Assembly (NCBI GenBank): GCA_016713785.1
Contig: JADJOM010000003.1
Coordinates: 13,497 to 77,496 of the forward strand
Source: Gemmatimonadota bacterium
GTDB lineage: Bacteria > Gemmatimonadota > Gemmatimonadetes > Gemmatimonadales > GWC2-71-9
Length of the DNA stretch: 64,000 nt
Reading direction: 5' to 3'
Shown here: positions 2,781 to 3,263 of the stretch, piece by piece
Numbering within the stretch: the stretch's first letter is position 1
How the letters are laid out: each line of letters starts with the position of its first letter
Translations under genes and position numbers: made by a program
Notes under the pieces: generated by a model
Told to the model about the DNA's origin: nothing
What the model saw: the letters and a program-made list of their open reading frames with translations, nothing else
The model's database searches: none

Positions 2781-2843
2781 CCAGCCGCGGACGAGCACGA
2801 GGCCCCTGCAGGAACCGGGTGACGGCGCACCCGGCGCGATCGC

Positions 2844-3046
2844 GTGTCACGTGGGACGCGGCGCGCGAGGCGCCCGTCATTCGGATTGTCGGATCCGCGC
2901 CGGGTAGCTGCCCGGGCAGAGTGGAAAGTGAGCCCGCCCGCGATCAGGTGTTTCTCCGGAGGCCGCGCCGCAGCACGCCTCGGCTCACAACACGGATCCG
3001 CGCCGGGCCCGAGGCACACGATGAAGCCGAGTACGTCGATTGTCAA
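2844..3046 (-). ncRNA. candidate IS110-type guide (bridge/seek-like) RNA region downstream of the transposase, copy 1
   Basis: No credible ORF. A TTGACA (minus strand, 3041-3046) lies inside the box GATTGTCAAAGAGCG, which sits ~212-227 nt after the transposase stop in all three IS copies. The region is conserved with 8444-8644. It contains CACGGATCC (2991-2999), identical to the flank beside the other IS end (4641-4649). Hypothesis only. Confidence 0.3.
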
Positions 3047-3263
3047 AGAGCGCCTGCCAGCTGACGGGCCCCGCGTAGCTCGATCCTAGCCCAACTCGGA
3101 GGCGTGGCCCGCTGACGCGGGCGACCCTCGACACCCCATTATCGGAGACTCGAGCGGACCCTCGGCCAGGGGAGCCGTGTAAAATGGGAGGCCAGCCCAA
3201 TGGGCTGCCTCAAGCGAACAAGGGCTCCTTCGTCCCGGCCGGCCAGCCGTCCAGCATAGCGAC

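Follow-up and report, generated by a model that had tools for sequence, protein, structure and literature searches.

The window analysed here is a stretch of 64,000 nucleotides (nt) from a Gemmatimonadota bacterium (assembly GCA_016713785.1, contig JADJOM010000003.1, positions 13,497 to 77,496). Its left 9 kb hold the 3' end of a plus-strand Rhs gene followed by three cassettes, each consisting of a toxin tip and a small open reading frame (ORF), and each followed in turn by a copy of an IS110-family transposase gene. All three copies, found by tblastn, lie on the minus strand. The subject of this work is the non-coding region at 2833-3263, downstream of the first transposase gene. Comparison with related loci indicates that it most likely encodes a multi-loop guide RNA of the bridge/seek type. 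We argue that it is probably the guide-RNA region of an RNA-guided transposon of the IS110 family that carries cargo and swaps Rhs tips.

The Rhs gene and the transposase copies

The Rhs gene was recognized by profile search from a YD repeat at 17-730 and a core domain (TIGR03696) at 1485-2288, whose end is ..NNPVAYTDPFGL (DPFGL, with the D codon at 1812). All the Rhs features tested are present: YD repeats, a core ending in PxxxxDPxGL, a variable tip and an immunity gene. Over its length in the window (17-2288, plus strand) the gene is broken across several reading frames. The stretch Rhs core..NNP-V-AYTDPFGL-CT1 forms one continuous ORF to 2288, after which come immunity gene 1, the body of the first element, VTFTDPFGL-CT2 and immunity gene 2 (CT1 to CT3 denote the three toxin tips). 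Neither the tips nor the immunity proteins match a family in Pfam or NCBIfam. In Rhs and contact-dependent inhibition (CDI) arrays, toxin-tip/immunity cassettes lie downstream of the Rhs gene, the newest tip being fused and the older ones orphaned, and the diversification of Rhs and other polymorphic toxins is usually attributed to homologous recombination in which orphan cassettes take part.

Both full transposase copies match the domains PF01548 (the N-terminal DEDD, RuvC-like domain) and PF02371. The NCBIfam model NF033542, 'IS110 family RNA-guided transposase', is matched with 187 bits (cut-off 140), and the transposase is related to that of IS621 in structure 8wt6 (E=1e-10). Copy 2 (~7220 to 6016) has 45% amino acid identity to copy 1 and is frameshifted (~6600), and copy 3 is made up of only the last ~35 transposase codons and the non-coding region (8427-~8970). 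The length of the transposase is about 416-423 residues, both in the window and in 120 homologues. Either the frameshifted copies are no longer active or indels have entered the assembly; such assembly errors are as likely as true pseudogenes, because a near-identical unit in another locus, L039, differs by two 1-nt gaps. In copy 3 the transposase gene breaks off ~105 nt before its stop codon (window ~8970), with unrelated sequence beyond. Very long overlapping ORFs on both strands (1524 and 1639 aa) fill 8863-13857, beyond this truncated copy; they have YD-like repeat motifs (repeat family D8) in common with the first Rhs gene, and a second Rhs-type gene may lie there.

A first, sequence-only reading of this DNA had pointed to a long stretch without a credible ORF downstream of each transposase gene, and the window sequence bears this out, with 430-480 nt in each case (2833-3263, ~5540-6015 and 8432-8862). 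Copies 1 and 3 are colinear there, as it had said, with 81% identity. Copy 2 is indeed divergent, but what it shares is a 36-nt stretch around a conserved box, more than the 15-mer first recognized. In unit 1, the left end (LE) measures ~100 nt, compared with 431 nt for the 3' non-coding region, and the non-coding region is kept across transposases down to ~55% identity. The coordinates of the array are given in Table 1.

Table 1. Features of the Rhs cassette array and its transposon units, in window coordinates
Feature	Position	Strand	Basis or remark
M2, candidate Rhs target-binding loop	2826..2907	-	covariance model, 83.1 bits
M1, loop module of 'D class'	2930..3010	-	covariance model, 80.5 bits; covariation
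Conserved box CGCUCUUUGACAAUC	3038..3052	-	invariant in relatives
Element E, candidate donor-binding loop	3071..3160	-	co-variation with LE and cargo start
M0, diverged module copy	3163..3241	-	covariance model, 22.7 bits, E=0.025
Transposase copy 1, IS110-family DEDD, ~420 aa	3264..4533	-	frameshift near 3810 in this assembly
LE of unit 1	4534..4632	-	homology with relatives begins here
Immunity gene 1 (predicted), cargo gene 1, 162 aa	2292..2780	+	placed directly after toxin tip
Rhs C-terminal toxin tip CT1, (V)AYTDPFGL..., cargo gene 2	1802..2288	+	in frame with Rhs core
Transposon unit 2, with divergent copy 2	4635..7349	-	left core AG at 7351-7350
Toxin tip CT2	4633-5109	+	
Immunity gene 2	5136-5465	+	
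Transposon unit 3	7352..8970	-	copy 3 truncated within transposase gene
Unit 3 modules	8834-8760, 8609-8529, 8507-8426	-	covariance model
Toxin tip CT3	7350-7805	+	
Immunity gene 3	7817-8380	+	

Structured modules in the 3' region

For comparison, 118 related loci were fetched, almost all from Gemmatimonadota metagenome bins (they are designated by L numbers below); the comparisons took in 80 of more than 170 metagenome relatives. Read in the transposase sense, region 2833-3263 contains three modules of ~80 nt, each with a stem, an internal loop and a hairpin (M0, M1 and M2), together with a diverged element, E. The repeat unit, ~82 nt long, can be written 5'-CCGGCGCG(G)AUCC, loop strand, hairpin, loop strand ending in ACAC, NN-GAUCGCGCC-3'. 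In M2 the basal stem is formed by CCCGGCGCG(G)AUC and GAUCGCGCCGGG. M1 has GUGUUGUGAGCC (2993-2982) as its 5' and GAGAA-ACAC (2956-2948) as its 3' loop strand. M0, with the 3' loop strand CAUUUU-ACAC, is present across the family and has its equivalent match in copy 3 at 8834-8760. Two CGGATCCGCGCCGGG units, at 2890-2904 and 2993-3007, are the 5' basal-stem strands of two paralogous modules; the placing of the former at 2894-2908 in the sequence-only reading was a coordinate slip of 4 nt, the one error among its sequence statements. Element E has an inner hairpin, GAGGG...CCUCC, followed by a conserved AUCGAGCUACGCGG block. RNAalifold recovers the inner hairpin alone, because the hairpin varies in length. 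The guide region of unit 2 has the same kind of content, with an E-like element near 5885-5842, the box at 5793-5807 and modules down to ~5490.

The structure shows covariation. In an alignment of 71 distinct modules, 96% of the cells are paired, a share that drops to 22-43% on sliding the partners. Double-sided changes amount to 121 cells, against 34 in shuffles; the observed values were reached by none of 500 shuffles. Compensatory changes are, for example, A-U 49 / C-G 21, G-C 47 / C-G 18 and C-G 42 / G-C 23. A covariance model made from this alignment finds M1 and M2 at 80-83 bits, M0 weakly, and their equivalents in copy 3. It gives 184 matches in 100 related loci, all in the transposase sense, barring low-scoring antisense echoes of strong sense matches. 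In ~90 loci the modules form tandem sets of one to five downstream of the transposase, matches upstream belonging to neighbouring element copies, and the 3' strand of each module resembles that of the next. Internal loops in a non-coding end beside the transposase gene, the arrangement looked for in a bridge or seek RNA, are thus found here. The idea that the 3' non-coding region holds such an RNA is supported by this covariation and by the co-varying guide/site complementarity described below. The more precise suggestion of one two-loop RNA of 190-260 nt does not fit: four structured elements span the whole region, and the candidate donor loop, E, lies upstream of the TTGACA box.

The window has exactly three occurrences of the 15-mer GATTGTCAAAGAGCG of this box, which start at 3038, 5793 and 8636 (0.04 expected by chance; none of 100 shuffles gives three). 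On the transposase strand it is CGCTCTTTGACAATC and contains TTGACA, followed after 17 nt by CATCGT (CAGCTT in copy 2), just as had been read by eye. Among 77 distinct related sequences the box GCTNTTTGACAAYYGA, a 16-mer of the form GCUNUUUGACAAYYGA, is invariant. As to the outward promoter proposed on these grounds, a -10-like hexamer (A2/T6) lies at 17 nt in only 25 of the 77 relatives, and a promoter and terminator scan found nothing, at the TTGACA box or elsewhere. The box may serve as the -35 element of an internal promoter for M1-M2; alternatively, it may be a conserved RNA motif or a site for protein binding. One may speculate that, as a promoter, it would give a transcript with the target loops only, and that transposase mRNA reading through would supply E. 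For another IS110 element, a truncated RNA with the target loop, separate from the full guide, has been described (bioRxiv 10.1101/2025.10.25.684509).

Loop strands, insertion sites and the extent of the mobile unit

Read in reverse complement, the left flanks of all relatives consist of codons for (V/L)-x-(F/Y)-x-D-P-F-G-L and, because they vary at synonymous sites, are host and not element sequence. The elements of the family begin with A(C/G)AC-CCCTAT. In unit 1, LE opens with ACCCCTATTGCC..., directly after an AC core at 4634-4633 that is also the GT of the Val codon of the displaced tip CT2. The 3' loop strand of a module consists of a variable 5-mer and a 4-mer, the latter tracking the first bases of the element (ACAC versus AGAC). 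The 4-5 nt that precede this constant 4-mer of the guide are the end of the left flank in 23 of 42 non-redundant elements, compared with 0.7% at random positions. The guide/flank classes are distinct: ACGTG, ACGCG (a natural variant, L001, changed in both places), GAGAA, AGTTG, CAGA and TAAA. The left-target guide of copy 1, ACGUG-AC-AC at 2852-2844, is identical to the left flank plus core.

On the other side of the crossover, the 5' loop strands are complementary to what follows the cargo toxin start, which for the terminal module at Rhs sites is Rhs-core sequence. In copy 1 this right-target guide is GACAAUCCG (~2890-2882), complementary to the Rhs-core side CGGGTTGTT. Uninterrupted runs reach 10 nt in L021 and L006 and 9 nt in L025, L044 and L080. 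The mean run is 6.0, against 4.5 after permutation, a value attained in none of 2000 permutations, and the terminal-module 5' loop strands follow the Rhs variant of the host, NNP versus GDP. An empty site is present in an intact Rhs gene of L037 (6113-6128), where it reads AACGTG-AC-CGGGTTAT. The dinucleotide AC behaves as a core, since it is single in the empty site and stands at both junctions of occupied sites. These relations suggest that M2 is a target-binding loop, specifying ACGTG-AC-CGGGTTRT, which on the opposite strand is the junction between Rhs core (..NNP) and toxin tip (V-T-F-T-D-P-F-G-L).

Some similarities between this region and its surroundings turned out to have another meaning. 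The hexamer GAYAAY of the M2 5' strand was considered as the Rhs 'NN' codons only; this was rejected, and the hexamer is taken to be partly scaffold, because it also opens the 5' strand of E, which leaves the variable A(C/U)CCGG(U) as the guide. The 9-bp repeat ACGTGACAC (2844-2852 and 4631-4639) was likewise rejected as a target duplication or long core, since the copy within the element belongs to a conserved stem, 11 nt in, and is itself the guide. The match of CACGGATCC at 2991-2999 with 4641-4649, in which the sequence-only reading saw a possible guide, is real but does not discriminate between sites, because GGAUCC is constant scaffold on the 5' side of every module and happens to equal the Rhs T-D-P codons. 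What had been suggested as a check, guide/target complementarity over many copies, gave a positive answer: the loop strands co-vary with the sequences of the insertion sites and of the element ends.

Several relatives (L044/L045, L004, L061-L064/L109) have the element and its cassette in sites outside Rhs genes, and there it is a non-terminal module whose guides fit the outer flanks. In L044, L045, L062 and L063 the two guides of a single module match; in L004 the right guide matches and the left only weakly, and matches at the other non-Rhs loci are partial. In L044 the left flank is CCAGA/AC for a guide GCAGA-ACAC, and the right flank AC/TCTCTGCA for CUGCAGAGAG; in L063, GAGAA/AC and AC/TCACAGCAG face AGAGAA-ACAC and CUGCUGUGAG (the slash marks the junction). 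Guide/flank matches of the M1 class occur in L043, L062-L064 and L004. The non-Rhs sites (L004, L043, L062, L063, L109; L044, L045, L080) are small inverted repeats around the AC core, such as GTGAG-AA-AC-TCAC and CAGA-AC-TCTCTG, and one left-flank sequence of ~60 nt recurs in five loci (L004, L043, L062, L063, L109). No tRNA or Rfam family was found at the GAGAA-type flank, and no D-class target site within the window. In L061-L064 and L109 the cassette is a toxin-tip remnant of 22 codons (VAYTDPSELCPPECLDKVVVLR, then a stop), ~130 nt past the final module; these elements have apparently lost their cargo and kept the donor half-site. M1 may be a second target-binding loop, directed at palindromic sites outside Rhs genes (..GAGAA-AC-TCACAGC..), and M1 and M0 would both be additional loops of the target type.

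Matches between loop strands and flanks could also arise if the modules acted as DNA, that is, as duplicated end-like recombinase sites comparable with the A'/B' boxes that flank ssr9 next to ISPpu9. Excision could then take alternative forms, or mini-elements could hitch-hike, and the matches would be traces of past recombination. ISPpu9 does make several circles from repeated end boxes (PMC12288879), tandem non-coding repeats beside IS110 transposases have been reported as a product of locus expansion (bioRxiv 10.64898/2026.08.14.744561), and both the varying number of modules among relatives, from one to five, and the likeness of successive 3' strands would suit this explanation. Yet compensatory changes keep two helices in every module, for which DNA end boxes have no need; the two loop strands of a module match opposite DNA strands around one crossover, the signature of bridge and seek RNAs; and the transposase of the family is of the RNA-guided type. 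We regard action as DNA sites as quite improbable.

Element E stands in a corresponding relation to the ends of the unit. Its 5' strand, GGGGUGU (3137-3131), can pair with the AC core together with ACCCC, the start of LE. The two co-vary, GGGGUGU going with ACACCCC, GAGGGUGU with ACACCCTC (L008 group), AGAGGU with ACCTCT (L025) and, in copy 2, AGAUGU (5879-5874) with ACATCT. Its 3' strand, GGGCU-AG (3092-3086), repeats the final nucleotides of the cargo toxin start (..AGGCT) and, after them, the first base of the core. Among 22 units, 17 have a guide whose last 3-4 nt are the end of their own cargo toxin start; at least 10 different triplets are represented, a result reached in 0 of 2000 permutations. 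All four guide/site pairs, two for the target and two for the donor, therefore co-vary across relatives. The E block AUCGAGCUAC was tried as the left donor guide for ..GATCGCGCC and discarded, as it does not vary with the M2 end; GGGCU-AG, upstream of AUCGAGCUAC, does co-vary with the cargo start. E would thus be the donor-binding loop, specifying a circle junction ..AGGCT-AC-ACCCC.. of which the left half is the start of the unit's own cargo tip. Such a circle would have to include the cargo, since this donor site does not exist otherwise. A donor-recognising loop, left and right target guides and the empty site of L037 are what one looks for in a bridge or seek RNA system. As a separate observation, LE itself carries a terminal hairpin, ACCCCTAT-N6-ATGGGGGT (4632-4611, minus strand); its stem changes in compensatory fashion in relatives (CCCTC/GAGGG in L008), and its 3' arm resembles the donor guide of E.

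The sequence-only reading had placed the end of the element at 2833. This right end was rejected: directly right of M2, relatives have in common only (C)GGG(T), with neither a core nor a match to the 5' loop strand, and it was this that led to the cargo model. By contrast, a Rhs toxin-tip start (..GGATCGGTATAGGCT-AC) is found 700-1200 nt beyond M2 in nearly every locus with enough sequence, followed by Rhs core (CGG(G/A)TT..), by the left end of another element or by non-Rhs sequence. In unit 1 the proposed right end is the CT1 start ..GGATCGGTATAGGCT on the minus strand, with an AC core at 1801-1800. Since the M2 and E guides match the target junction, LE and the toxin-tip start 1 kb beyond M2, the mobile unit would extend through the cargo cassette to 1802 and measure ~2.8 kb (4632-1802), comprising LE, transposase, M0, E, box, M1, M2, immunity gene and CT1. 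Unit 1 and the metagenome locus L039 are 99.79% identical over 2861 nt, with 2 gaps, both cargo genes included; immunity protein 1 is 100% identical. On the left the two have different flanks, and ..GGCTAC is precisely where the L039 contig ends. At 300-520, ~870 nt upstream of the intact unit, L039 also has a degenerate remnant of the module region of another element, which points to units of greater age that have decayed within this array. Between the stop of immunity gene 1 and M2, a stretch of 52 nt (2781-2832) holds CTGCAGGAA, also present in the Rhs core (..WLQED..); this may be chance, or the trace of a cassette capture.

The same data bear on a simpler view, that the guide RNA is real but belongs to an ordinary insertion sequence (IS) of ~1.8 kb, ending at 2833 and inserting at the 5' edge of existing orphan cassettes. 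The toxin and immunity genes would then be mere neighbours, and the arrays and shuffled flanks would have been produced by homologous recombination, with either IS copies or Rhs motifs as partners. This process is the accepted explanation of Rhs tip displacement, conservation among close relatives does stop right after ..GATCGCGCC, and the right-target guide of copy 1 is weakly matched to the Rhs core. We nevertheless think this view unlikely. The right guide and the AC core both find their counterpart after the cargo toxin start, whereas right of M2 (C)GGG(T) is all that fits the guide and there is no AC core. The 3' strand of E co-varies with the cargo toxin start and not with the M2 end. 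Units with cargo, or with the 22-aa remnant, occur in non-Rhs sites where both flanks fit one module (L044, L045, L062, L063). Finally, the identity of unit 1 and L039 (99.8%) runs through the cargo but not beyond the left end.

A proposed mechanism and its relation to known systems

In the mechanism that we propose, the transposase strand of the 3' region would be transcribed and the RNA bound by the transposase. Each unit of the RNA, a basal stem, an internal loop and a hairpin, would use its 5' loop strand to pair with the top strand right of the crossover. The 3' loop strand, which equals the top strand left of the crossover plus the core, would pair with the bottom strand. The circle junction would be ..TATAGGCT-AC-ACCCCTATTG, with the cargo included, and the unit would recombine at AC with ACGTG-AC-CGGGTT (ACGTG-AC-CGGGTTGT) in the Rhs gene, between the Pro and Val codons. 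The cargo tip would thereby be fused in frame to the Rhs core, while the resident tip and its immunity gene would be pushed downstream as an orphan. Insertions that displace tips in this way would leave an array of orphan cassettes with IS copies between them, and the arrangement Rhs core-[CT1-imm1-IS1]-[CT2-imm2-IS2]-[CT3-imm3-IS3] in the window would be the record of three successive insertions. Unit 1 would not re-target itself, because its own guide, ACGUG, mismatches its own tip start, AGGCT. ACAC-type elements have ..AGGCT tips and ACGUG guides, and AGAC-type elements such as copy 2 have tips of the ..ACGTG/ACATG type and (C)GCU guides. ACAC-type units followed by AGAC-type left ends are found in L007, L049, L067, L069 and L072. 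In this limited sample, reciprocal targeting of the two types would fit the alternation seen in the window.

A number of observations weigh against this interpretation, for which all the evidence comes from sequence comparison. Each of the two full transposase genes has a frameshift. Basal-stem conservation is partly a product of selection, because the modules of the first alignment were collected by motifs in that stem; hairpin covariation and the covariance-model matches are independent of this. The excess of G-U over A-C, an indicator of the strand, is modest (36 vs 20). The right-target guide of copy 1 is degenerate and matches its site poorly (an exact run of 4); the left donor guide is short, 3-4 nt plus core; and AGAC-type elements such as copy 2 have AG as left junction core but AC as target core. 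A -10 element accompanies the box in only a third of relatives, and one promoter cannot explain a single RNA, because the TTGACA box sits between the putative donor and target loops. Folding the region as a single sequence, as had been suggested, gave energies no better than shuffles on either strand (z = -1.0 and 0.0); with so high a G+C content such folding is uninformative, which is why only comparative evidence is used here. Such energies, and the finding that Rfam 15 has no match to the guide region at gathering level or E<=10, are also what a decaying 3' untranslated region (UTR) would give, its flank similarities being chance in GC-rich sequence. Chance is contradicted by the covariation, by each of the three tests against permutations or a null, and by the conservation of the region across transposases to ~55% identity, and we consider such decay very improbable. 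Elsewhere in the window, the sole Rfam family is a cspA thermoregulator (RF01766, 49357-49825, minus strand, 80.6 bits, gathering level).

By analogy, the mechanism would resemble those of the IS621 bridge RNA and the IS1111 seekRNAs. In common with the IS621/IS110 system (PMC11208160, PMC11208158), there is a DEDD/Tnp_20 recombinase, an RNA with stem/internal-loop/stem-loop units, one loop for the target and one for the donor, and loop strands that pair with opposite DNA strands around a 2-nt core contained within the guides. However, in IS621 the RNA lies in the left end and has two loops, the core is CT and the transposase has 326 residues. Here the RNA lies downstream of the transposase gene with the order of loop strands reversed, there are up to four or five paralogous loops, the core is AC and the transposase has ~420 residues. 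The left half of the donor, unlike that of IS621, is the start of a cargo gene ~1 kb away.

IS110-type elements with a downstream non-coding region have been noted (PMC11187229), and the sequence-only reading had likened the present ones to the IS1111 branch. The downstream RNA and the strand order, with the top-strand match 5' of the bottom-strand match, do agree with the seekRNAs of ISEc11, ISPa11 and ISKpn4 (PMC11187229), as does a target that is a conserved motif into which insertion adds no extra bases. IS1111 membership is not established by this. IS1111 transposases are shorter, 330-350 residues (PMC11187229), and their elements have sub-terminal inverted repeats of 7-17 bp, of which no clear example was found in the ends of unit 1. 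By eye, a 5-bp CCTAT/ATAGG pair (and CCGAT/ATCGG at another spacing) can be seen between LE and the cargo-side end of unit 1, but it is not conserved in the relatives inspected. The elements are not filed as IS1111 because of the ~420-aa transposase and the lack of clear repeats. They also differ from the IS1111 seekRNA elements in having several tandem loops, a cargo, and a target within a protein-coding motif that leads to in-frame fusion.

Expanded IS110 loci (Hu et al., bioRxiv 10.64898/2026.08.14.744561) and ISPpu9/ssr9 (PMC12288879) are likewise larger than the canonical ~1.5 kb, carry passenger DNA and tandem non-coding repeat units, and form alternative circles. The cargos described by Hu et al. 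are mostly plasmid-derived and resistance genes, gained via half-matched sites, and the main text of that report (bioRxiv 10.64898/2026.08.14.744561) mentions neither Rhs nor toxins. In the present case the cargo is a dedicated toxin-tip/immunity cassette whose own 5' end is the donor site and which insertion would make functional. With respect to Rhs/CDI arrays in general, the difference is that RNA-guided site-specific recombination, rather than homologous recombination, is proposed to bring in the new tip. A literature search on IS110 together with Rhs, or on bridge recombinases together with polymorphic toxins, found nothing comparable.

A wider proposal, which we hold to be plausible on balance, is that a Gemmatimonadota clade of IS110-family elements consists of RNA-guided 'toxin-tip delivery' transposons, each bearing a Rhs toxin/immunity cassette with its 5' end as donor site. 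One loop would insert the unit at the core/tip junction and orphan the resident tip, while extra loops would 'park' it at palindromic non-Rhs sites. Two guilds would target each other's tips, ACAC-type elements with VAY.. cargo inserting at VTF.. tips and AGAC-type elements with VTF.. cargo at VAY.. tips, which would give alternating arrays. If this is true, Rhs proteins would have at their disposal a dedicated, programmable mechanism of diversification that writes new toxin tips in frame, and orphan arrays interleaved with transposase genes would be accounted for. It would also represent a natural bridge-recombinase system with one donor loop and several target loops, a form of multi-target programming, in which the donor half-site lies at the far end of the cargo and the target lies within a coding motif, so that insertion fuses genes.

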